IMG/VR virus record: IMGVR_UViG_3300045988_110853
Location: 4,077 to 68,076 of that record
DNA length: 64,000 nt
Source: a virus
Strand: one strand, 5' to 3'
Shown here one piece after another: positions 1,745 through 54,176 of the stretch. Position 1 is the stretch's first letter. Each line of letters starts with the position of its first letter. The position numbers and the translations under genes are program-made. The notes beneath the pieces were generated by a model. That model was not told the origin of the DNA, made no database searches, and saw nothing but the letters and a program-made list of their open reading frames with translations.

Positions 1745-2510
1745 TTTATTGAGATGGCATAATATATCCAGCAATATTTAATGTATAATATGTCTTCGAC
1801 CAGTAATAACTTGAATTGCCAATCGTCATATAAAATTTTGAAGAATTTTGGTCAAAAGAGTGTGAAAAATTAATATTATTATTATTATATCCATCAAACT
1901 AAAATACATCACCATTTACAGCATAATATCCGTCTAAAAAAGCATAAATTCCTCCATCAGAAGGAACGTAATATCCATTTGGTTTAATTGAAATAGATTG
2001 CATCTAAAAATTAGGTGGTATAGATACATTATTCCAATATATTGTCTACGTATTTTCAAAAAGTGTATTTCCAGCTCGAATGATGCAATAATAAAAATCT
2101 TGCCGAGTTCCGGTAACTCCAAAAATAGACACTCCAGATACAATATTACCAGGAACAAGATTACTATCTCCTTGAACTTGTATTGTGCCTGTAGTATATT
2201 TCCCATTACTAACAGCAATTTTTGTATCAGTTCCAGGAACTATTGTGATACCACTCTAAGTCGATAATTGTAGTGTTTTATTTGTTCCACTCGATAAATA
2301 TCCGCTAGTCCCTACGCTTGAAGTAATTAAGCCATTACTATTCACGCTAATTTCATTTAAAGAACCAGTTGGCATAGCATTAACAGTTACTCTAGACAGT
2401 CCATCATAACCACTATCAGGCGCTACATTCTAAGAAGAAATAGAAGGAGAAACTGTTTTAGTTTGTAATTTAGGGCTTCCACCGCCACCACTCATCACTT
2501 CAGCGCTCAT
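1745..2510 (-). CDS. tail fiber-like protein, paralog of 3104-3892, about 5 in-frame TAG
   Basis: Starts MSAEVMSGGGGS exactly like 3104-3892 paralog; ORF only continuous if TAG is sense; ATG overlaps TGA of upstream gene (ATGA). Confidence 0.5.
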
Positions 2511-3103: not shown

Positions 3104-3892
3104 TTAAGTTGGGGCTTTTTCACATATTACATATAAATAATATGGGTCTCCGCTAAAGTAAATATCAGAATTATTTTCTAATGTAATAGTAAATTTTCCT
3201 GTATTACCATAATTCCAAGTTACTTCAATATAGCTATTAACTGAAGTAACCGCATTTCCGCTCCAATCAGTATAACTCGCCCAAAGCTTTCCACCCCAAT
3301 TTTGATTTGTCATATAGCTTTGAAGAGCAATAAAACCACATTTATAGCTATATCCTTCGCGAATCATTATGATTTGATACGGATATAATGTTCTATCATA
3401 AAAACTGAATTTTGTAGGAATAAAAGTATAAGTTGTAGTTCCTTGAGAAGGCTAAATTTTTCTTACTTCTATTGGAGTGCTTGATAATGTTCCAGTTACT
3501 CCAAAAATATTTACTCCACTTTTAATATTACTGGCAGTTAAATTACTATCTCCACTTACTCTTATAGCTCCAGTTGTATATTTTCCACTATCAACCGCGG
3601 TTTGATTATATCTTCCAGGAGTTATAGTTTTTGAACCTTGAGTGGATAATTGTAATGTTTTATTTGTTCCGCTTGATAAATAACCACTAGTACCAACATT
3701 AGCAGTAATTAATCCATTACTATTAATAGTAGGATTATTAAGAACACCAGTTGGCATAGCATTAACAATTACTTTAGATAATCCATCGTAATTACTATCA
3801 GGTGTTACGATTTGAGAAGATGTTGATGGTGTAATAATTTTATCTTGTAATTTAAGACTCCCACCACCGCCACTCATTACTTCTGCGCTCAT
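3104..3892 (-). CDS. tail fiber-like protein (1 in-frame TAG at 3452-3454), ends TAA
   Basis: Track ORFs 3452-3892 and 3104-3367 are same frame separated only by TAG; paralog of 1745-2510. Confidence 0.55.
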
Positions 3893-8999: not shown

Positions 9000-11030
9000 T
9001 TAATAATTATTATATGCGGTTAGTAAAGTATCTAATTGTGTTTTAAAACTAGCATCACCTGACGCCACCTTAGTATTATTTCCCAAAGCAGTTGTTATAG
9101 CATTAAACCAAACTACTAAACGTAGGGGATTAGCGTCATTTATGGTAGCAATTGAACTATTTAAATAAGTATTTATATATCCCGCGAAAGTATTTGCTTC
9201 ACTTCTGGAATAGTCTTTCCAAGTAAATGCGGGCCACCAAACTGCGTAATAAGTTATATTAGATGTTCCAGTAGAAATTGAAGGTGTTGCTCCCTTTTTA
9301 TAAGTCGCGGTTTTTGCCGTAGACGATGTAGACCATCCTTTAAAAATATAATTATTGCGAGTAGGATAATTGGATCCGTTAATATTAAAAGAAGAATTAG
9401 TATTAACTGTCTGTGATCCCGGCCCGCCAGAACCGCCATTCGCATTATAAGTTATGGTTATTGTATTTCTTTTCCAAATCGCATAAAAAGTTGTTGAACC
9501 ACTTACTAATACAGAACTTCCTGCGCTATAGCCAGAAGTAGCAGATGAAGAAGTGCTCCATCCTTGGAAAGTATAGTTTGTACGAGATGGCGCGGAAGCC
9601 ATTGTAGCGTTCATAGAATCAGCGTAAACATAATTTGTAGACCAGATAGTATTAGTACCATCATTCTTGTTAAAGGTTATTGTATATTGTCTATAATAGT
9701 TATATTGCCACGGTATAGAATATGTGCTGCTATTACTCCAAGCGGCGTTTACATACCAATAATAAGTAGTGCTTGCTGATGCTGTATATTCAATTTTAGT
9801 ATCATAACCAGTTCCCGCTCCATCATCATCTACTTTTAATGTTGTTCCACTAACAGCACTTGTTCTACTAGTTCCCGAAGCAGCTGATAAAAGTGAAGAA
9901 CTTAAATAGCTATAATAGTCAGGACTTTTAGAATTACTGGTTGTTTTAAATACCAATTTTCCAGCATAACTTGGAGTTGTTACTGTAATATATCCTGCCT
10001 TATAAGCAGGTACAGAAGTAGTACCACTTGTTCCACTAGTACCACTACCTATAGTATACATACTAATTGGTGTCATCCAAGAACTTATTGATTCAAAATA
10101 AAAATAAAGTTTTCCTGAAAAAGCAGCAGGGCTACTCCAAGGAGCTATCGCTATTCTATAAGTTGTATTAGCAGTCACAGAAAACTAAGTTATTTTAAAA
10201 TGTCCGCTTCCGCCACTTTGATCGTCAGATATTAAATAATTTGTTATTGCCTAATATCCACTAGAAGCGCTTGAATTTAATCCCATTGAATTGGCATATC
10301 CTATAAATCCATAGTCATCAAAACTATCTCCAGAAGCATATGCAGTAAGAAGTCCATTTGAACTAGGAGTATAATCAATATACCCAATTCCGTAAGAAGA
10401 TAAATTATAGTCTACATAAGTATTGACTGCGCCACTATAATTACCTAAATTTTGTAAATACCATCCTGTTGGAGCTTCAGTATAAAAGAAAACTACATAA
10501 GGATGCCTTGAACTATGATTGGTACAAACAGAGTCTGTTCCATCATAATTTCCATTTTTTGCCTGTTCTACACATTTTGACCAAGTGCTATGATAAACAT
10601 AACCCTAATAAGTATATCCACTAATAGTAGGAGCTGTAATGCTTGAAGAAGAAGTGGAAGTTTCATAGCCCATATAATCTCCAGCGGTTAAATTGTAGCA
10701 ATCCCAATGATAATCATCATCAGAGCCACCGCTACCTCCTCCGCCTCCACCAGAATCTTCATCAGTCCAAGCAACTCCTGTTCCAGAGGCTCCATTATTC
10801 CACTAGCCTGCTGTATAATAATCTACTTCCCAAGCATATTCATACCTTGTGCCAGGAGTTAATCCTGAAATTCGAACCCAAGGAGTTCCAGTTGTTGAAG
10901 AACCAGTATCCGAAGTCCCATCATCTAAACGGACATATAACCTTCTACTAACATTATCTGAACTTATTCCACTTGCTTCAAAAATTAATGAGGTAGTAGT
11001 ACTACTTGTACAACTTACAGAAACAGCCAT
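9000..11030 (-). CDS. large structural protein with FN3-like motif (about 4 in-frame TAG)
   Basis: ATG 11028-11030 after RBS aagggagg; GLTPGTRYEY FN3 signature; joins track ORFs 10803-11030 and 9000-10178 through TAGs; TAA stop. Confidence 0.5.
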
Positions 11031-11549: not shown

Positions 11550-11636
11550 TGGTGGGCCGAGCTGGGATCGAACCAGCCGAGCATTCAAGCACCTGATTTA
11601 CAGTCAGGTCCGCTACCTTCTACGGGATACCGGCCC
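11550..11636 (-). tRNA. tRNA-Tyr (anticodon GTA), long variable arm, CCA encoded
   Basis: Manual fold: acceptor GGGCCGG/TCGGCCC, anticodon loop CTGTAAA, T-arm GCTGG TTCGATC CCAGC. Confidence 0.75.
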
Positions 11637-11980: not shown

Positions 11981-12207
11981 TTGAGGGTTTTAATTAGGTT
12001 AACCCACAACCTCCGATAGTGTGTCTACTGAACCAAAGGAATGCCCGATCGCCACATTCCACTCTTTAAAAGATGGACGCTTCTAATCCTACTTCCTATC
12101 GTATAAAAGGACTTATCAATGACTTTTATACATATTGCCTTTATTATCTTTATAAACAAATTAGCATTACCCAGTGCTACCGCGAGGAGGTTTTGTTTTT
12201 AGCACCG

Positions 12208-12296
12208 CAGCCCCGCTGGGATTCGAACCCAGAACGACTCCTTCAAAGGGAAAACGGTTTTAGAGACCGCCGTGTTAACCGTTACACTACGGGGCA
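12208..12296 (-). tRNA. suppressor tRNA, anticodon CTA (reads UAG); type-II-like long variable region, discriminator G
   Basis: Manual fold: D-arm GTGT AACGGTTA ACAC; anticodon stem GCGGT/ACCGT with loop CTCTAAA; T-arm CTGGG TTCGAAT CCCAG; 21-nt variable region. Confidence 0.7.
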
Positions 12297-13942: not shown

Positions 13943-14800
13943 TTAAGTAGTTAAAAATGCGTTATAACCTTTTGATTTTAAATCATTGATTACTTTAATA
14001 GCATTTGCTTTTATAGAAAAAGCACCTACTTGAACTTTATAATACTTGCCTATCTTGCGAATATAAGCATTTTTATAACCTGCTCCAATAGTATCAGGTA
14101 ATGCTTTAATCTTCAATAAGAAAGCATCAGCATTGGATTTAGATCCAAAAGCACCAAGTTGAACGCGATAAATAATTTGCGGTTTAAGGTAAACTGCCAT
14201 TACATTATCTACTGCGCGATTACCCCAGTCTTTAGTAATACAAGTTCCATTGTGAAGAACTTTTGTGCTACCACCGCCATCAAGATTAATAGCATAATCA
14301 ACCTTTAATGTTAAAAGTAAATTCTACATTTCCGCAAACGCCATACCTGGCTTTTCAATAGCGATTAAATAAATATTAGATTTATTATATGCTAATACTG
14401 TTCTGCGAGCTTTATAATCTAATTCTTTAGCATAAGTAATTTGAGCTTTTTTACCAGCTTTAATTAATACCGGATAACCACTGACAAAATCTTCAAATCT
14501 TTCTGTCCCAATTATGCCATATTTCAATTCACCATTAACTATGCCAAATCCTTCTTTATAAGAAGAAGTAGAATTAATGATTACACCATTATCCATATAA
14601 TTAAAACAAGTAGCACCATTATCCATACTAAAGAAACCGCCATTAGTTAAAATAGTAGGTTTAACCGCACAACTATCATAATATTGCTTTAAAGTCTAAC
14701 GCGGTTGGGCGCATAACGCCATATCTAACTTACTAATTTCTTCTTTTGGAATTTCAATAATTTTCACATACGAATAATTATTTGGAGAATATATTTTCAT
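13943..14800 (-). CDS. putative cell-wall hydrolase: NAGPA (phosphodiester glycosidase)-like domain plus C-terminal SPOR domain (2 in-frame TAG)
   Basis: RBS aaggaaggtg; YAINLDGGGST motif; C-terminal SPOR repeats YRVQLGAF..YKVQVGAF; TAGs at 14324 and about 14700. Confidence 0.55.
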
Positions 14801-22119: not shown

Positions 22120-22200
22120 TTGCCCGGAAAATGGATTTGAACCATTAACTTAATCTTAAATGATTATGACCTAACCTTTAGTCTATTCTGGAAGTTATTT
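22120..22200 (-). other. tRNA-like gene with 6- or 8-nt anticodon loop (TAATC ATTTAA GATTA)
   Basis: Acceptor TCCAGAA/TTCCGGG with mismatch, D-arm GAC TAAAGGTTAG GTC, T-arm AATGG TTCAAAT CCATT. Confidence 0.25.
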
Positions 22201-22269: not shown

Positions 22270-23148
22270 TTAATTTCGACCAACATCTAAAATATAACAA
22301 AAACCAGCTAATCTATATTCAGGTTTAAAGAAATATTGAGCTAAAGCTTTTGCGCAATGATCCGCAGAATTTCGTCCAGAAAGTTTAATGTTATTAAATC
22401 CAAGAGGAAGATACTTATCAATAATTTCATCCATATAAATCATATCTTTATTACCGATTTCTGGAAACATAGAATCATTATTTTTAATAGTAGTACAACT
22501 TCTTTCTTTATCATTAAAAGCCTGAAAAAGATTCATTTTAGAAAAAATATTATAATGAGTATATAAGCGCGGACAGTCAATAGGACATGTTTCGTCTACC
22601 AAAATTTCAATTCTATTCCTTTTATTTTCTGGTACAGAATTTAAAAAATCCCAGTCTCGATTTTTACGACGAGGAATAACTACACTTTCATAAATATCAA
22701 GTGCTTTTACAAAATCATAATCTTCCTTTGCAGCTGTAATACTCTTTGTAAGTTTATAATTAGGAAACTTATCTCGAAGATACTTTTCGAGAATAGGAGA
22801 ATTAACAATAATTTCATTCATTCCATTATCAAAAAGTTTAAGCATTTCATTACATTGTCTATCATATACGTCTGTTTCTTCAAGGTTAGGATTTGTAAGG
22901 GTAAAGCGCAAAATAATATTATTCTTTTCATAAAATTCTCGTACAGCACAGAGATAATCAATATTATGTTCTGGCATTCCGCCCATAAAACCTCCGCCAT
23001 TCCAAATCATGCCAGGAAGTGCACCATAAACATATTTTACTTTTGCTTCTGGATAAAAAGCTTGAGGTTCAAGCTCTTGAAGTTCAAGTAATCTATCATA
23101 AACATCAATACCATAATAAAATTCAGGGCAATTAAAATTAATATCCAT
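22270..23148 (-). CDS. hypothetical protein, last gene of YcaO/radical-SAM cluster
   Basis: 292 aa ORF, very AT-rich codon usage. Confidence 0.55.
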   Translation of the reverse strand: MDINFNCPEFYYGIDVYDRLLELQELEPQAFYPEAKVKYVYGALPGMIWNGGGFMGGMPEHNIDYLCAVREFYEKNNIILRFTLTNPNLEETDVYDRQCNEMLKLFDNGMNEIIVNSPILEKYLRDKFPNYKLTKSITAAKEDYDFVKALDIYESVVIPRRKNRDWDFLNSVPENKRNRIEILVDETCPIDCPRLYTHYNIFSKMNLFQAFNDKERSCTTIKNNDSMFPEIGNKDMIYMDEIIDKYLPLGFNNIKLSGRNSADHCAKALAQYFFKPEYRLAGFCYILDVGRN

Positions 23149-23161
23149 TTATATTCTCCTA

Positions 23162-24979
23162 TTAGTAATTTGCAATCATTGTTTTAAAATCTTTAGAATT
23201 AAAAATTTCTCTCATTGGTTCAAGAATACATTTTTCAACCAAATATTTTCTATTTAAAATATTATTAAAATCTTCATTAGTATATTCATAATTATATTCT
23301 TTTAAAATATCAATTATTTCATCTTTAGAATATTTCCTACTTTTTACATAAGAATATAAATTAAGATACTTTTTAAATTTTTTATAATAAGGACTTACTG
23401 TAATATCTACGGCAAATTGATTATCTTCAAGAAGATAATCAGCAGGATCTTCAAATAGATTTTTTACAAAAATTTCATTAGGAATAGTTTGCACATCTAC
23501 ATTATTATATGAAACAAGTAAATCTCCTTGTGATAAAAGCCCTAAAAATCTATCAGTTAAAGTGTCTCCTTCAATTAAATCTGTAAATGTTAAAGAATCT
23601 TTAATAATATCATATACTCCATCACCAGTATCTAAATATTTTTGAATATGTCCGCATTTATTTTTAGTAAGAATAGCACTTTTTTTTAAAGTCTTTAATG
23701 TTTTACATTTATTTAAAAAAGAATACCAAAATCCGTCAAGATTGTCAAGATAAATATCAATTGCTGTAATTTTATTACTTAAAGATACATCAGCATAATA
23801 AATTTTTGCTCCAATTGATTTTGTAATTTTTTTATTCCACTCAAGAATTTCTTCATTAGAATAACTTTTATTCTCGTAGGATAAGAATACATCTTTATTT
23901 ATAGTATTTACATACTTTTTATTAAGAAGAATATTCTCAGGAAATGTATTTAAATTAGTAATACAAGAACCACCCATGATAATAATATCATCATCATTTA
24001 ATGTATTATAAGGAAGAATAATAGAAAATTTTCTATCATCATAAGAGAAACAATTTTGATACATTTCAGTTAAAATACGTTCAACCGCAATTTCAAACAC
24101 AGGAAAAGCGCCAAAATTTGCAGAAATAGTTCCATTTTTATAATTGATAAGAACTCCCATTACTACTGGAATATTAAAAGTTCTTGACATATCAATAATA
24201 TAATATTTATTACCATGAGATTCAATAGCATTAATAATATCTATTAGTTTTTTATCAGTAATACTATTAATATCAAAAAAATAATAATTTTTATCAGTAT
24301 TAGTATAAAAATGACTAACTACGTAATGTTCAAAAATTTCTGATAATCCTTGATTTAAAGCTTCAGTTAAAGTATTACCAGCGGCCATACCAGAGCTACC
24401 TTGATAACGTTGAACAAGACGTGGGTCTAAATATTTAATATCTTTATCATCGTTTAGATTGATATAAGGAGTGCCAAAAAATTTATTATTATACATAGAA
24501 ACAAGACAATCTTTAATTAAATAGTTAGTTTCTTCATCAAAAGAATTAAAAAATTTATACATTAAAGATTCTTTTTCTCCAAGAGCTTCTTCAAAGCTTA
24601 CTTCTTTTTCATTTTTAAATAATGAATATCCATAATTTTTTTGATTTGCTTTAATTTTTTCATTACATAAAAATGGATTACATAAATAATGTAATCCATT
24701 ACAAAATCTTTCATACATTTCAGCGTATCCAGAAGCCATAGCGAATTCTTTAGATACTCCTTTACCGAAAGATCTTAAAATAGAATGACCTTTATAATAT
24801 AAACGAAGAGCAAGACTCCAAGTCGTAGATTGTTCTTGACGCAAAACTTCTTCGATGCAATAAAAGTCTCGATCCGCGAAGAATTGCTTAATGTTATTTA
24901 CTGTGTCTAGAGGACTAATTTCTTTATAATGTTGTGAATAATTATTCATATGATATTTTGCCTTTCTTTTTCCTATCAT
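23162..24979 (-). CDS. YcaO-domain protein with about 300 aa C-terminal extension of unknown type
   Basis: SFGKGVSKEFAMASGYAEMYERF and QGSSGMAAGNTLTEALNQGLSEIFEHY match YcaO ATP-binding motifs; 605 aa, no in-frame stops. Confidence 0.7.
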   Translation of the reverse strand: MIGKRKAKYHMNNYSQHYKEISPLDTVNNIKQFFADRDFYCIEEVLRQEQSTTWSLALRLYYKGHSILRSFGKGVSKEFAMASGYAEMYERFCNGLHYLCNPFLCNEKIKANQKNYGYSLFKNEKEVSFEEALGEKESLMYKFFNSFDEETNYLIKDCLVSMYNNKFFGTPYINLNDDKDIKYLDPRLVQRYQGSSGMAAGNTLTEALNQGLSEIFEHYVVSHFYTNTDKNYYFFDINSITDKKLIDIINAIESHGNKYYIIDMSRTFNIPVVMGVLINYKNGTISANFGAFPVFEIAVERILTEMYQNCFSYDDRKFSIILPYNTLNDDDIIIMGGSCITNLNTFPENILLNKKYVNTINKDVFLSYENKSYSNEEILEWNKKITKSIGAKIYYADVSLSNKITAIDIYLDNLDGFWYSFLNKCKTLKTLKKSAILTKNKCGHIQKYLDTGDGVYDIIKDSLTFTDLIEGDTLTDRFLGLLSQGDLLVSYNNVDVQTIPNEIFVKNLFEDPADYLLEDNQFAVDITVSPYYKKFKKYLNLYSYVKSRKYSKDEIIDILKEYNYEYTNEDFNNILNRKYLVEKCILEPMREIFNSKDFKTMIANY

Positions 24980-25014
24980 ATAAATATATTACTATATTTT
25001 TTTAATAAAGTCAA
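24975..25014 (-). promoter_or_regulatory. class-A promoter variant (TTGACT-N17-TAATAT)
   Basis: -35 25009-25014, -10 24986-24991. Confidence 0.45.
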
Positions 25015-25083
25015 AAACCTACCAAATAAAGTGGTAGGTTTTTGACTTTATCAAATTAAATAAAAACAATTAGGGCATAAATA

Positions 25084-25305
25084 CTAATTATCATTTATTT
25101 TAAATAATGGGATATTATTTATTTGTAAATTACATTTAGAGCATCGTTTATTTTTATAAATTTTTGGTATAAAAATTTCTATATCTGGTTCAAATAAGTT
25201 TAAAAGATTATTAGATATTCTTTGAAAATAAATATCTTTTTCTTCATTACTATCATTATAATTATATTGTAAAATATATTCACACATTATTTTACAATGA
25301 TTCAA
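25084..25305 (-). CDS. small Cys-containing hypothetical protein
   Basis: 73 aa ORF; TAG-interrupted coding continues upstream to about 25700. Confidence 0.3.
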   Translation of the reverse strand: MNHCKIMCEYILQYNYNDSNEEKDIYFQRISNNLLNLFEPDIEIFIPKIYKNKRCSKCNLQINNIPLFKINDN

Positions 25306-25712
25306 ATTAGTTAATTTTAATTCCTCTATTGGGACAACAATACTAGATATATTATCTAAATTTATTTTAGATTTAATTATATACTATATTTGAAGAATTA
25401 TAGTTTTATCTTTTTTAATAATTCCTAAATTAAAACAAACGAAAAGTATCCAATAGTCATAAATACTATTATTATCAAAATCAAAAGATAAAGCTCTTAT
25501 TTTATCCCAAAAAATTTGTTCTGAAGTCTCAAATCCACCATTACTAAATTTCATTTAATTCTCCATTAAAACAATAATTATAATAATTATTTGTATCTTT
25601 TTCAAGTTGAATACTTCGAGGATAATCTAATTCCCAAGATGTTCTTTTATTATAAAACTATAAAAAATTTTTTAATATATCTTGTATAAATTCTTTATAT
25701 TCATCATAAGTA

Positions 25713-27767
25713 TCAATCATATAAATCATACTCTTCTTTCTCAAGATAATTTAGAAATTGATCGTAAACAAATTGATAATATATATATCCATTAAAATAA
25801 TTTAATATTGGATATACTTCTTTTTTTAAATTATCAAATGATTTAATATATTCTCCATCTAAGCAATGAAAATTAATAGTATTATTTTTTATATCACTTA
25901 TAATTTTTTTACTCAATGGGCATAAACAATCATTATTTATTTGATTTAAAGGATAAATTAAATTTATTTTATATAAAATATAATAGCTTGTTTTAATGAA
26001 ATTTTCTATAAAATAATTATTATGTTTTATATAAATTAAATTATCATATTCATAGAAATATTTTATTTCATATAAAATTCTAATAATTATTGATTGTAAT
26101 ATTTTATTTTTTTTATCTGAATTTAAATTATAAATATAAAAAAACTATAAAAAGAAAATAACTATTTTTACTAAATAATCTATAGCTTCAGATAATCCTG
26201 TATGAGATATATTGCCTGGATTAATATTTAAATCAATTATATAATTTCCAATAGTCTAATCAATTAATTGCCCTTCTCCATATAAATTACATAAATCAAA
26301 GAATAAATTATCTTCACACAAACAAAAATTACTATATTTTATATTATATTTCTATAAAAAATCTCGCTTTAAAATTAACCCAAGCTTATTATCAGGAATA
26401 ATAAACTATATAAAATCATTTTTTTTATTATTTTTTATAGAATTATAAAGAATTTCTAATTCATTATCTGTATTAAATAAATCATCTGAATCCCAAAATA
26501 AAATATATTTATTAAATGAATTTTCTAAGCCTATATTTCGGGCGGATCCCGGACCTTTACGAGCAATATTTTTAAAAAAGAAACAAGAAAAATCCGCGTT
26601 ATCAAATATTTTAATAACTTTTCTTTCGCAAGCTGAATTATCACTTATTAAATATACACAGCAATCTTTAATAATTGTTTGCGCTCTTAATGAATTATAT
26701 AAATCAATTATCTAATTATCATTAAGATTATAATAAGGAATAATTATATCTATTTTACCATTAATAAATCTATTTATACATTTTTGTAAATAATAATTAT
26801 TATACCGGAAATCAATTGGGGTCTTACCATTTAAGAATTCCTAATAATTGTTTAGAAAATCTTCTTTATTATTTATAAGTTTTAAATAAAAGTTATAGTC
26901 TTCAAAATAAGCATTTTCCATTGATATAGTAAATTCTGATTTAGTATTATAACATTTATGCCATAGCCAAGAAGTGACCGGTAAAGTGGCATCACAATAT
27001 TTACAAATTTTTTTAGGTGAAAATATAAAATTATGTAAGTCATCTAAACTATTTATATTTTCTAATTGTAAATAATCTTTATCCTCTTCTGGAATATTTA
27101 AATTATATTTTTTACAATAAATATCTAAAAATGCGGAAAAGGGACAAATATATATTTTATAATCTTTTAATGTAAAACAAGGTATTTCATGCGGACAATA
27201 TTGATAATAAGCTTTTATTGGATCAGTATCTCCATTTTCATTTACAAGCTATTGACGCATAAATAATCGTTCTTGATGATTAAAAGCAATACCATATTCT
27301 TGACATTCTTCAACATCTTTATAATCTGTATAATTACTATAAGCAGTTATGTCAAATATTATATCCATATCAAGATATTCTTTTTTATGTTTAATAGTGT
27401 CTTTCATATTTAATCCGTTAGATAAAACTTTTAATTGAGTTTTTTCTTTTGGAAATATTTCACGAGCTATTTTACATAATTCAAATAATTGTGGGTGAAG
27501 AGTTGGTTCTCCACCCACAATCATAAATACTTTTATATTAGGAATTTTTTTATTAGCTATAATAATCTAATTGCGGAAATCATTTACATCAATAAACCAA
27601 GGGGTGGCTAAAGGTGAAAAATGATTGCAACCTGCACAATTAAGATTACAATGATCTACTACCTGTATCTCTAGACTTACACCATCATAAACAGATTTCC
27701 AAAGACTATGTGTATATGGAGGAGTCCCACGGTAATCTTTATCTTTCTTTATCTGTATATCGTTCAT
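25713..27767 (-). CDS. TAG-rich coding region: small radical-SAM (CxxxCxxC + GGEPTLHP), Cys-rich SPASM-like segment, then GT2 glycosyltransferase (IIIPYYN, DSDD); apparently one ORF with about 8 TAG
   Basis: VVDHCNLNCAGCNH and MIVGGEPTLHP at N-term; QYCPHEIPC...CKYCDATLP Cys cluster; GKIDIIIPYYN and FWDSDD GT2 motifs; only TAG interrupts the frame by eye. Confidence 0.4.
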
Positions 27768-28320
27768 CGAAATCTCCTAATATATGAGTGTTATAATCAA
27801 CTAATTCTCTTATTTGATTATTACGTTCATGTAAAAAACATTGAGTACAAATTTCATTTAAATCATTTAAAGGTTCATGGAAAAAATTGCAATAATGTTT
27901 TTCAAAATCAAAATATTTACAATGCTTATCACATATTAAAATATCATTATCTTTATCATAAATTACAGAATGGTCTTCTCGTAAACGAAAAGATAATTGA
28001 ATTTTAAACATTAAAGTTCCTTGATAAGAATATAAAAAAGTTTTATAAAATATGTCTTGAACTTTACTTTCAAAAGTAAATTTCTATTTATCTGTAGTAA
28101 TAAGCTCAATGCATTCTATTTCATTCTAATCTATAGTTTTAACTTGCTAATAAACCTAATTTAAAAAAGAATAATCAATATCATTCTAATCTTTAATTAT
28201 TTTCGCAAAAACTATTTCTTTTGGAAAATTTAATTGAAATATAATATCATCACATTGACGCTCATTAAATTTAACAGATTTTAAAATTTCTTTATTTGAA
28301 TTAATAAAATTAATAACCAT
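27739..28320 (-). CDS. Cys/His-rich hypothetical protein (about 5 in-frame TAG)
   Basis: MVINFINSNKE...; C-terminal CDKHCKYFDFEKHYCNFFHEP..CTQCFLHE. Confidence 0.35.
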
Positions 28321-28636
28321 TTCTCTTATCAGGAATTCCTTTTAATCGATCTCCTAAGAAATATCTATATAATTCATAAGAATCAATACCATTATCACAA
28401 TAACAATTATTATTATTTTCATTATTGTTGTTATCGTTATTATTAGATTTTTCTGTATGATCTGTAATAATTATTTTAATAAAATTATTAATAATAGTAT
28501 TAATTTCTTCATTCTCACCATTATTTTCAATCCAATTTAAATAAATAATATATAAAAGATCTCTATAATCTTCTACATTACTATAATCAAAAGTTTCAAT
28601 TAAATGGTTAATTTGATTTTTCATTTCTTCAATCAT
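28310..28636 (-). CDS. hypothetical protein with poly-Asn tract
   Basis: 108 aa ORF. Confidence 0.4.
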   Translation of the reverse strand: MIEEMKNQINHLIETFDYSNVEDYRDLLYIIYLNWIENNGENEEINTIINNFIKIIITDHTEKSNNNDNNNNENNNNCYCDNGIDSYELYRYFLGDRLKGIPDKRNGY

Positions 28637-30035
28637 TATAATACCCCAAATTATGGCAAAGATTTAACCAATTTTCTTTATATCTTTCATCTGGAAAATA
28701 ATTTTTTTCTAAAGCAATTTTAGTTAATCCTAGTTCGCAATAACTTTTAACTAAAAAAGATATTCTTGTTTTATGTAATTCACAGACACTTTTAGGTGGC
28801 AAAAACAAATCTCCAGTAGACTCAAGCGCAGCGCCAAGACAAAGCTTTAAACAAAATGCTTCATAAGGACAAGTAACACATCCAACATTTAAATGAGTAT
28901 TATTTGTTTTAATTACCGTATAAAGGCTTGGATTAATGGCTGTAACTCCAATAATTTTATCATTTTCAACTTCAAATCTACCACCAATAAATTGTTGATA
29001 AGAAGTTCTATGACAAGGAACTAATTCCATAGTAGCAACATAAAAACAGGTTTGGTGAGAAATTGCGCAAGTGTAATTTCCATCTCTCCAAGTGACGGTT
29101 GGCTGTAATGGGTCATAATTATGTAATCCAATCAAAGACCCTTCTTCTCCGTCCCCTAAAAAGATATGTCGAGCTAGTTTATCTAATGAGCTATCATTCA
29201 TTTGGAATCTAATTTCAAGCATGTGAGTTAAAAATTCAAGATATTGATTTAATTTTTCTTCCGTCCATTCATCATTACGCACTTCTAAAAACATGGGCTG
29301 GAATTCATCACGAGGGCCTTTACATAATTTATATTTTTCATATTGTTCAAGCCACCAATCATAATTTTTAATAGCACTTTCAATATTACTTGGAGAAATC
29401 ATTGGATGAATACCACAAGAATTCCTAGAAAGGAATTGCATAATCTTATCATAATATTCAAAATCTTTATTTTCTTCTCTTACACTATTATAAGGGCCAT
29501 CTACAGAACAAGATAAATTTAATTCCATTTCAAGATCAAGAAATTTTTGAAGATACTCTTCCATTTTAGTTGCTTTTTTATCATCAGCGACAAAACTAAA
29601 ATTATTAGGGAAAGCAATACGAGGATGATGTTTCTTAAAAAGATTAGGATGCTCTTCAAAAAGAGCTCCATAGTATTTTAAAAGTAGATCAAAAACACTA
29701 AAACCTAAATCATCGTAAAATAAATCTCCCGCGAAAAGCTCTATTTCAAGAAACAAAACTTTTCTTTCGTTAAAAATATAATCTAACATAATATTCATAT
29801 TTTTAAGAATTTTTTCATTATTTGCTCTTGTTTCAAGTGGATATAAATCTTTTCCATAACGAGCAATATAACAATATTCACACTTTTGATTACATTCTGG
29901 ACGAATAATAAACTCAAAAGAGCTTTCATTTATCCAATAACCTTCTTCTTTATCCCCTTGATTAAAACAATGATTATCAAGAAATTTTTCAAAATATTTA
30001 TTATTATCTAAAATACAACCTTCACTAATATTCAT
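28629..30035 (-). CDS. radical SAM enzyme with C-terminal SPASM domain (peptide-modifying maturase type)
   Basis: CNQKCEYCY (CxxxCxxC) near N-term; C-terminal CVTCPYEAFCLKLC; ATG overlaps upstream gene stop. Confidence 0.75.
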   Translation of the reverse strand: MNISEGCILDNNKYFEKFLDNHCFNQGDKEEGYWINESSFEFIIRPECNQKCEYCYIARYGKDLYPLETRANNEKILKNMNIMLDYIFNERKVLFLEIELFAGDLFYDDLGFSVFDLLLKYYGALFEEHPNLFKKHHPRIAFPNNFSFVADDKKATKMEEYLQKFLDLEMELNLSCSVDGPYNSVREENKDFEYYDKIMQFLSRNSCGIHPMISPSNIESAIKNYDWWLEQYEKYKLCKGPRDEFQPMFLEVRNDEWTEEKLNQYLEFLTHMLEIRFQMNDSSLDKLARHIFLGDGEEGSLIGLHNYDPLQPTVTWRDGNYTCAISHQTCFYVATMELVPCHRTSYQQFIGGRFEVENDKIIGVTAINPSLYTVIKTNNTHLNVGCVTCPYEAFCLKLCLGAALESTGDLFLPPKSVCELHKTRISFLVKSYCELGLTKIALEKNYFPDERYKENWLNLCHNLGYYND

Positions 30036-53520: not shown

Positions 53521-53732
53521 TATATATGAAGGAGGTGGAAGTGTTGTCGGTAGAATAGAAGAGATTTCCCGCTAATGTAGATATGAATATATTAACTTTT
53601 TTAAATAATAAGAAGATAAATGGCGAGTTATACGCTTATTTATAGAGCTTATCTGAGTATGATGTTATTAATAAATAGTATAATATTTATAAGACTTATG
53701 TATTAAAAAAATGGTTGCCAATTCAAAGTAAG

Positions 53733-54176
53733 ATGTGCCAAATGCTTGGTATTAAAAGTCCTAAAACATTAAAAACGCATTTGAATTATTTAATTGAATA
53801 GGGCTATATTATTGAAGAAGAAGATAGATATATATTACCTGAGATGGAAAATATATATTTTCTTATTCCTTTACATACATTAAGATATATAAATGATAAC
53901 TGTAAAGAACATATTATAAAAATATATATTTATTTGGGATAGCGTTATAAATATGCGTTAAATAATGGAAGTTAGTATGAATTTACATTAGAGGAAATTG
54001 GAGAACATAGTGGTATAAAAGTTAAGAATAACAGCAGAGGTTATGAAATTATTAATAATGCTTTAACATTTTTATAGAATTCAGAATTGATTGATTATGT
54101 TAGTTTTTTTGATGGATAGATGTAGAAAAAGAAATTAACAAAGTTTAGTTTTGAATATAAAAATTAGAATAGGTAA
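53733..54176 (+). CDS. winged-helix replication-initiator/regulator-like protein (at least 8 in-frame TAG); start uncertain
   Basis: Only frame free of TAA/TGA; LKTHLNYLIE-TAG-GYIIEEEDRYILPEM...EEIGEHSGIKVKNNSRGYEIINNALTFL. Confidence 0.4.

Follow-up and report, generated by a model that had tools for sequence, protein, structure and literature searches.

In the 64,000-nucleotide stretch of the IMG/VR virus record IMGVR_UViG_3300045988_110853 that was analysed here (hereafter the window), the minus strand encodes an amber suppressor tRNA with anticodon CUA, and between its anticodon stem and its T stem this tRNA carries an extra stem-loop whose loop, in comparison with a large family of related phage tRNAs, matches that of a glutamine (Gln) anticodon. 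On balance we lean towards explaining it as an amber Gln suppressor in which the extra arm, arisen by duplication, would supply the Gln anticodon identity. The sequence-only reading of this locus had described a conflict between the shape of the tRNA, which suggested Ser, Leu or Tyr, and the alignment of two paralogous genes, which suggested Gln. Once the extra arm is recognised as a stem-loop with a Gln anticodon loop and not as one of class II, the conflict disappears and both lines lead to Gln. The coordinates of the features are collected in Table 1.

ARAGORN called a tRNA with anticodon cta at 12207-12296 (-), the label 'Pyl' that it gave being a reflection of the CUA anticodon only, and the Rfam model RF00005 matched positions 12208-12296 (-) with 56.2 bits (E = 2e-9), above the gathering score of 29. 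The minus strand of the window has, according to ARAGORN, 20 tRNA-like genes, all of them in the interval 10.8-22.2 kb. The first half of the RNA reads UGCCCCG UA GUGU AACGGUUA ACAC G GCGGU CUCUAAA ACCGU and the second half U-UUCC-CUUUGAA-GGAG-UCGUU CUGGG UUCGAAU CCCAG CGGGGCU G. The decoding loop CTCTAAA has 7 nt with U33, the variable region, which runs from the anticodon stem to the T stem, has 21 nt and the discriminator is the G at 12208; loop sequence, region length and discriminator are as the sequence-only reading had described. Position 1 (T, 12296) lies opposite T at 12209, giving a U1·U72 mismatch. The suppressor has no encoded CCA, while most other tRNAs of the array do, and its register was fixed by CCA-encoding relatives (type B) that end in ...CGGGGC-T72-G73-CCA. 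The acceptor has seven positions (six pairs and the U·U mismatch) and the T stem 5 bp, a 7/5 arrangement, and the D arm is of type I, with a 4-bp stem and an 8-nt loop (GTGTAAYGGTTARCAC). The decoding arm GGT-CTCTAAA-ACC is one base from a tRNA-Trp arm. The likeness to type-II tRNAs that had been claimed therefore holds for the length of the variable region, but not for the type-I D arm or for the extra stem, which has three Watson-Crick pairs and a U·G, with a 5-nt linker after it. The locus thus encodes an amber suppressor tRNA of a phage whose genome is TAG-recoded.

Relatives of the window were IMG/VR contigs retrieved by DNA patterns and with two proteins, and are labelled here with L-numbers. 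For a census of the extra-arm loop the search pattern was an anticodon arm and a T loop with 20-30 unconstrained bases in between, and it gave 69 distinct long CUA tRNAs; earlier family scans had forced the loop TYTGM and were excluded from the loop statistics. It was found that about 55 of the 69 had CUG or UUG in the extra-arm loop. A strict register test was passed by 37, about 19 more were type-I-bodied with CUG or UUG, and about 14 had true Ser/Leu/Tyr-like bodies. The remaining long CUA tRNAs share a common design of one nucleotide (A or U), a short stem, the loop, a G and a 5-nt linker, the linker having this length in 32 of 37 family members. Within the 37 strict-register sequences N33 was U in 35, N34 was C in 29 and U in 8, N37 was A in 34 and the closing C·A was present in 25; U35 and G36 were fixed by the register test itself.

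The register of the extra arm was anchored on the loop and verified by covariation. In a 28-sequence alignment the three core stem pairs were Watson-Crick in 84 of 84 cells, with 21 compensatory double changes and with GC/UA/AU/CG, CG/GC/UA/AU and CG/GC/AU as the alternatives at the three pairs. Registers proposed by an automatic hairpin-finder, such as CUCU-GAA-GGAG, were inconsistent and were dropped. In the family the loop is nearly invariant while the stem and the acceptor, D and T arms vary widely. The extra loop of the window tRNA is CUUUGAA and its decoding loop CUCUAAA, the family loop being identical to the latter but for G versus A at the third anticodon position, and the sense Gln tRNAs of these phages have the loop CUYUGAC. 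As judged from this comparison, the extra-arm loop C32-U33-Y34-U35-G36-A37-A38 is a Gln anticodon loop on a separately conserved, covarying stem, and in the genomes that were searched the arm marks a large, phage-only family of CUA tRNAs.

Other long tRNAs were present in the same collection. Amber suppressors with genuine Ser/Leu/Tyr-like class-II bodies, distinct from the family of the window, were seen in L259 (with a GGAGAG... start, G73 and a 6-bp arm), L288, L271, L295, L257, L244, L278 and others. Extra arms were also seen on type-I isoacceptors of 84-90 nt, namely tRNA-Cys in L036, L037, L043, L044, L048, L050 and L011, tRNA-His in L152, tRNA-Lys in L153, and tRNA-Thr and tRNA-Gly in L009. 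The loops of the latter arms are variable and not anticodon-like, those of tRNA-Cys being TGTAA, CGTAA, CGCAA, CGAAA and TTCAA.

If the arm keeps identity, suppressors of phages that read TGA as Trp might be expected to have the Trp anticodon in it. When UCA tRNAs were scanned for in the same way, 33 distinct long genes were obtained, among which the Sec-like ones had unremarkable arms and the type-I ones had Trp-like ends (A1:U72, G73) and extra arms centred on CCA. Such arms were found in L357 (ACGGU-CUCCAAA-ACCGU), L311 (GAGGC-CUCCAAA-ACCUC), L310 (GCGGC-GUCCAAA-ACCGC) and L317 (CUCGG-UUCCAAC-CCGAG), and also in L344, L339, L323, L305, L335, L348, L337, L338, L306 and L309; several of them have a full 5-bp stem with the loop CUCCAAA. 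When all distinct tRNAs of at least 84 nt were tabulated by decoding class and arm triplet, a YUG arm was present in 56 of 88 CUA tRNAs, 1 of 33 UCA tRNAs, 1 of 64 Ser tRNAs, 7 of 57 Leu tRNAs (all one lineage) and none of 18 Tyr tRNAs, and a CCA arm in 2, 10, 1, 0 and 0 of these, respectively. Fisher tests gave p = 1.5e-7 and 3.7e-5 with the unbiased sets alone, values that are overstated, as the sequences are not independent. By their sequences, a set of opal suppressors carries a parallel extra arm with the Trp anticodon CCA. The cores of the decoding arm and the extra arm of L357 are identical at 12 of 13 positions, and in L121 the 9-nt CAGCGGTCT opens both arms as a direct repeat; these repeats suggest that the extra arm came from duplication of an anticodon stem-loop. 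The viral contig L303 has a CUA suppressor with a Trp-type extra arm (GAGGU-GUCCAAA-GCCUC), which may mean that TAG is read as Trp there or that the anticodon was recently switched from the opal family.

Reading with TAA and TGA as the only stops left many minus-strand genes of the window intact. In 61 curated genes of at least 100 amino acids each, which end with TAA (43) or TGA (18), in-frame TAG was found in 27 genes and 70 times in total, so that TAG, if counted as Gln, would be 70 of 388 Gln codons. The contig L035 is 91-95% identical to the window in flank DNA and 91-98% in proteins. Its orthologues share 18 TAG:TAG pairs with those of the window, and all 12 differences between TAG and a sense codon are exchanges of TAG with CAG (7) or CAA (5); in the structural protein at 9000-11030, for example, two TAG codons are CAG in L035 and two CAG codons are TAG there. 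When all relatives were considered, a window TAG stood opposite a sense codon at 18 informative sites in credible genes, and Gln occurred in some relative at 12 of these, versus Leu at 2, Ser at 1 and Tyr at 1, on a Gln background of 2.2% of residues in the aligned proteins. A TAG of a relative stood opposite a window Gln at 14 sites. In the alignments of the relatives TGG was never seen opposite a window TAG, and TAG never aligned preferentially with Ser, Leu or Tyr codons. With substitution frequencies from the same alignments, the maximum-likelihood residue for TAG was Gln, 28 nats over the next (K). Gln was also the residue suggested earlier from the two tail-fibre-like paralogs, and both that pairing and the wider tabulation of residues at codon level agreed with it. 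Because all L035 differences involve Gln codons, 12 of 18 sites show Gln and the likelihood favours it, TAG is, on these alignments, a sense codon for Gln that interchanges only with CAG and CAA.

The body of the tRNA was compared with the identity elements of Gln, Ser, Leu and Tyr tRNAs, using 62 distinct members of the long-armed CUA family and sense tRNAs from the same loci. Pair 1:72 was weak or mismatched in 55 of the 62, C:G in 5 and G:C in 1, the tally over all 62 being U:A 23, U·U 14, A·C 7, A:U 6, C:G 5, U·C 3, U·G 2, G·U 1 and G:C 1; G2:C71 was present in 56 and G10 in 60, and N73 was G in 40, A in 17 and U in 5. In sense tRNA-Gln, 1:72 was U:A or A:U in 29 of 30 and N73 was G in 25 of 30. 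Sense tRNA-Ser had G1:C72 in 60 of 61, and A73 was found in 88 of 92 sense Leu and 18 of 20 sense Tyr tRNAs. The D-arm motif GTGTAAYGG..RCAC occurred in 6 of 22 sense Gln tRNAs and in none of 118 Ser, Leu and Tyr tRNAs. Determinants of Gln identity include G73, U1-A72, G2-C71, G10 and U35, the full E. coli set being G73, U1-A72, G2-C71, G3-C70, G10, U34/C34, U35, G36, A37 and U38 (PMC9976931), and the window tRNA matches it with U1 in a weak 1:72 (U1·U72), G2:C71, G10, C34, U35, A37 and G73. By these comparisons, the body fits the tRNA-Gln pattern of these phages, with weak or unpaired 1:72, G2:C71, G10 and G73. Compared with class-II tRNA-Ser the window tRNA has G73 and the long region, but also U·U at 1:72, a stem of 3-4 bp, U11:A24 and a type-I D arm; compared with Leu and Tyr tRNAs it has G73 where A73 is usual, and in E. 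coli G73 is an antideterminant for Leu and Tyr (review PMC9976931). The earlier assignment to Ser, Leu or Tyr from architecture was thus not upheld, G73 arguing against Leu and Tyr and U1·U72 against Ser. A nearest-neighbour isotype search among 575 distinct phage tRNAs, with the arm kept or removed, was uninformative (Thr and Trp best at 73%, Gln 68%).

The slot of the suppressor, between tRNA-Val and tRNA-Tyr, is occupied in L035 (3614-3686) by a 73-nt CUA tRNA with U1·C72 and G73 and without an extra arm, and the slot flanks of the two contigs are identical right up to tRNA positions 1 and 73. As short and long suppressors serve the same TAG codons, the arm would be one solution among others. 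The neighbouring tRNA-Tyr (window 11550-11636 versus L035 and L026) is likewise a different gene in conserved flanks, an exact cassette-like swap.

Directly 3' of the suppressor tRNA we found a candidate minimal theta ribozyme, of the hepatitis delta virus (HDV)-like type. Its score with model RF02682, 26.1 bits (E = 0.004), lies below the gathering score of 44, because P4 is absent as in minimal forms. The segments follow in the order GGTGCT / AAACAAA / ACC-T-CC-TCGC-GGT / AGCACT / GG / GTAATG / CTAAT / TTGTTT and include P1, P2, P3, L3 (CC), P1.1 (GG), J4/2 (CUAA, with the catalytic C) and the G1·U wobble of the theta motif. G1 of the ribozyme is at 12206, 2 nt past the discriminator, and predicted scission 5' of G12206 leaves ...G73-C74. 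The motif occurs once only in the window, despite 19 other tRNA-like calls, and within the tRNA family the ribozyme is present only in this lineage and in L035. Phage suppressor tRNAs that lack CCA are known to be accompanied by theta ribozymes (Kienbeck et al. 2024, PMC10879173), and in supplementary file 3 of that paper theta-adjacent metagenomic reads contain ...AGCGGTCTCTAAAACCGTATCCCTCTGAAGGAGTTAGT..., labelled 'Gln CTG pseudo' by tRNAscan. With this label tRNAscan took the extra arm for the anticodon arm. The 5' part of these reads is unlike an acceptor and D arm.

Outside viral contigs, the arm pattern had 90 matches in 185,579 species genomes, of which 3 were true tRNAs, on contigs of metagenome-assembled genomes (L167, Bacilli; L186, 'Mollicutes'; L201, Erysipelotrichaceae). 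Two of these three contigs, of about 160 kb, are probably phage contigs binned into such genomes. Among GenBank phages no close relative of the window was found, a DNA search giving a tRNA-Pro fragment only, and the lysin matched these phages in its SPOR domain only, to Faecalibacterium phage endolysins.

The mechanism that we favour, by a modest measure, would start with duplication of the anticodon stem-loop. The 5' copy would have mutated to read the stop codon, and the 3' copy would have been retained to present U35 and G36, which the Gln-charging enzyme reads and which are absent as a set from a CUA anticodon. The charging enzyme could be glutaminyl-tRNA synthetase (GlnRS), or a non-discriminating GluRS followed by GatCAB; in either case decoding and identity would be divided between two arms. 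The theta ribozyme would cut the transcript one nucleotide past the discriminator and host enzymes would finish the CCA end. The synthetase might gain access to the extra arm by alternative stacking of this arm on the D stem, or by tethering. Known behaviour of the enzymes is compatible with parts of this scheme, since GlnRS charges a long-armed amber suppressor (tRNA-Ser) after changes at 1:72 and 3:70, amber tRNA-Trp is charged with Gln, and GlnRS and TrpRS are both strongly anticodon-dependent (PMC9976931).

Several points weigh against this explanation. GlnRS approaches a tRNA from the D-arm side and an arm in the variable region points away from it, so that direct reading of the second arm by GlnRS would need non-canonical docking or another conformer. 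The short suppressor of L035 serves the same TAG codons, so the arm is not indispensable. In the E. coli Gln identity set the window tRNA departs at C3:G70, which lies outside the set, and at A36 and A38 of the decoding arm, G36 being found only in the extra-arm loop. Home-made isotype hidden Markov models, which are weak evidence, put Trp on top with the anticodon arm included and, with the loop or the whole anticodon arm masked, put Gln on top by no more than about 1 bit. Finally, the family members are related, so the counts and Fisher tests overstate their independence.

Among the rival explanations, we consider charging by SerRS, or by LeuRS or TyrRS, through the long arm, which would make TAG at least partly Ser, Leu or Tyr, to be extremely improbable. 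The variable region has 21 nt and the discriminator is G73, and a long arm together with G73 is normally taken as a sign of Ser identity (PMC5389517; PMC7609411); genuine Ser/Leu-like CUA tRNAs do occur in other viral contigs such as L259 and L288, but the residues at the TAG sites and all the L035 changes point to Gln, and the U1·U72 pair, the G73, the type-I D arm with a motif absent from the sense Ser, Leu and Tyr tRNAs, and an extra stem of only 3-4 bp before a 5-nt 3' linker all contradict it. It seems to us quite unlikely that the extra arm has no role in identity and is either what remains of a duplicated anticodon arm or a generic stabilising hairpin, which the Gln-charging enzyme tolerates. 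The duplication signatures of L357 and L121 agree with it, a short suppressor appears to function in the same genomic background in L035, these phages have extra arms on further type-I tRNAs (Cys, His, Lys, Thr, Gly) as well, and long arms are tolerated by GlnRS (PMC9976931). A relic should decay, yet this loop stays nearly invariant while the rest of the tRNA varies, its position 34 changes between C and U only, both of which give Gln anticodons, the opal suppressors independently retain CCA, and the extra-arm loops of tRNA-Cys, by contrast, vary.

It is also unlikely, in our judgement, that the arm is read by a factor other than a synthetase, such as a T-box-like sensor, a modification enzyme, a phage protein that controls when suppression occurs, or an anticodon nuclease for which it is a decoy. 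The sequence-specific conservation of an anticodon-like loop and the geometric difficulty for GlnRS would both agree with such a factor. Protein-bound mimics of anticodon loops are known in mRNAs (PMC6542539). However, no protein family was found to co-occur specifically with long-arm tRNAs in the available flanks, and in two separate systems, amber with Gln and opal with Trp, the anticodon of the arm matches the amino acid that is inserted, which is most simply an identity signal. We hold it very unlikely that the tRNA is a dual decoder, in which either arm serves on the ribosome and one Gln-tRNA reads both UAG and CAR. The second arm does precede a normal 5-nt variable loop and T arm, in the opal tRNA of L357 it is a full 5-bp anticodon stem-loop, and decoding with 4-bp anticodon stems is possible (PMC13092985); against this, the second arm of the window tRNA has only three Watson-Crick pairs and a wobble, no tRNA is known in which another arm separates the D arm from the anticodon arm, and covariance models place the first arm as the anticodon arm.

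A plus-strand open reading frame (ORF) at 53526-54176 (+), of 216 amino acids and with its family not known, has 10 in-frame TAG codons, so the recoding reaches beyond the structural and lysis block. A peptide-modification-like gene cluster was observed at 22270-31537 (-). Among the other tRNA-like calls, the ARAGORN 'tRNA-SeC(tca)' at 10855-10934 (-) was rejected as a second (opal) suppressor; it lies inside the ORF 9000-11030, Rfam gives no match there and L035 conserves the stretch as coding sequence, so that the call is most likely a false positive. The tRNA-like gene at 22122-22192 (-) has a 6-nt anticodon loop, was given the anticodon 'tt' by ARAGORN and had no Rfam match that reached the gathering score.

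Table 1. Features of the window with their positions, strand, details and basis
Feature	Position	Strand	Details	Basis
Amber suppressor tRNA, anticodon CUA	12208-12296	-	89 nt, position 1 to G73	ARAGORN, Rfam RF00005, sequence, family alignment and covariation
Decoding anticodon arm	12254-12270	-	stem GCGGT/ACCGT, loop CTCTAAA; anticodon CUA 12261-12263	stem covaries in family
Extra arm	12238-12252	-	stem U·G, U:A, C:G, C:G; loop C-U-UUG-A-A 12242-12248; UUG 12244-12246	
Linker UCGUU, extra arm to T stem	12233-12237	-	5 nt, length of an ordinary variable loop	
Minimal HDV-like (theta) ribozyme, candidate	12152-12206	-	directly 3' of suppressor tRNA	RF02682 and motif match
Tail-fibre-like paralog	1746-2510	-	5 in-frame TAG	
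Tail-fibre-like paralog	3104-3892	-	CAA opposite TAG codons 26 and 84 of 1746-2510; 1 TAG of its own	
Structural protein, Listeria-Bacteroides repeats	9000-11030	-	4 in-frame TAG	
Lysin, phosphodiester glycosidase and SPOR domains	13943-14800	-	2 in-frame TAG; codon 158 is CAA in 14 aligned relatives	
YcaO gene	23162-24979	-	zero TAG; in cluster 22270-31537	
Radical-SAM/glycosyltransferase-2 fusion	25713-27800	-	9 in-frame TAG	
ORF between the two radical-SAM genes	28629-30035	-	468 amino acids; in cluster 22270-31537	
Further radical-SAM protein	30035-31537	-	1 TAG; in cluster 22270-31537	

The amber and opal tRNAs may belong to a general class of 'two-headed' phage suppressors, a proposal that we make tentatively and with less confidence than the explanation of the window tRNA itself. 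One arm would read the stop codon (CUA or UCA) and the other would keep the sense anticodon, CUG or UUG for Gln and CCA for Trp, by which host synthetases that depend on the anticodon would still charge the tRNA. If true, this would explain why phages recode TAG to Gln and TGA to Trp and what enforces these recodings when the phage brings no synthetase; synthetases encoded by phages are rare, and reassignments other than to Gln and Trp have not been seen (Borges et al. 10.1101/2021.08.26.457843). An auxiliary arm with the cognate sense anticodon would be a concrete mechanism for correct charging of phage suppressors and, if identity can come from a side arm, a design principle for suppressor tRNAs of anticodon-dependent synthetases. 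Such genes are mislabelled by tRNA-finding software, as with 'Pyl' by ARAGORN and 'Gln CTG pseudo' by tRNAscan in the table of PMC10879173, and from architecture alone Ser would be wrongly predicted. In full-text searches of the literature on recoding, theta ribozymes, non-canonical tRNAs and tRNA identity, which covered few subscription journals so that an earlier description is possible, no description of an anticodon-like extra arm was found.

The system resembles the code-15 phages that read TAG as Gln (crAss-like, Lak, phAss-1; 10.1101/2021.08.26.457843, PMC10607447, PMC9523058) in its CUA anticodon and the alignment of TAG with Gln, and also in the tRNA array of a large, low-GC phage, with no phage-encoded synthetase seen in the window. 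However, ordinary short tRNAs are described or assumed in the papers on these phages, where an extra arm goes unmentioned, whereas the window tRNA has a conserved 15-nt stem-loop with a Gln anticodon loop. In the systems of PMC10879173, as in the window, a phage suppressor that lacks CCA has a ribozyme core immediately on its 3' side, and the segments in the window fit the published motif; an extra arm of the tRNA is not discussed there. Two precedents cited in PMC9976931, E. coli Su+7 (a tRNA-Trp with CUA that receives Gln) and an amber tRNA-Ser turned into a Gln acceptor by acceptor changes, show that U35, a weak 1:72 and G73 steer amber suppressors to GlnRS and that a long arm is no bar. 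Both are mutant or laboratory tRNAs and have one anticodon-type loop each, whereas the window tRNA keeps the cognate YUG in a second loop.

The window tRNA resembles class-II tRNAs (Ser, Leu, Tyr, Sec) and allo-tRNAs (PMC5389517) in that its variable region exceeds 10 nt and folds into a stem-loop. Unlike them, it is 7/5 and not 8/4 or 9/3, the two splits of the 12-bp acceptor branch of allo-tRNAs, and it has a type-I D arm and an unpaired 1:72. Its arm, unlike that of class-II tRNAs, has a single nucleotide before it and a G and the 5-nt linker after it, and its loop is conserved, which class-II loops are not. The nematode nev-tRNAs of Hamashima et al. reportedly have a noncanonical variable arm that switches identity away from the meaning of the anticodon. 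Engineered suppressors with aptamer-tagged variable arms exist as well (PMC7590224). Like both of these, the window tRNA combines a type-I anticodon class with an added variable arm that would alter or add a recognition surface. Unlike in the nev-tRNAs, the arm of the window tRNA appears to maintain the identity that the tRNA had before its anticodon was altered.

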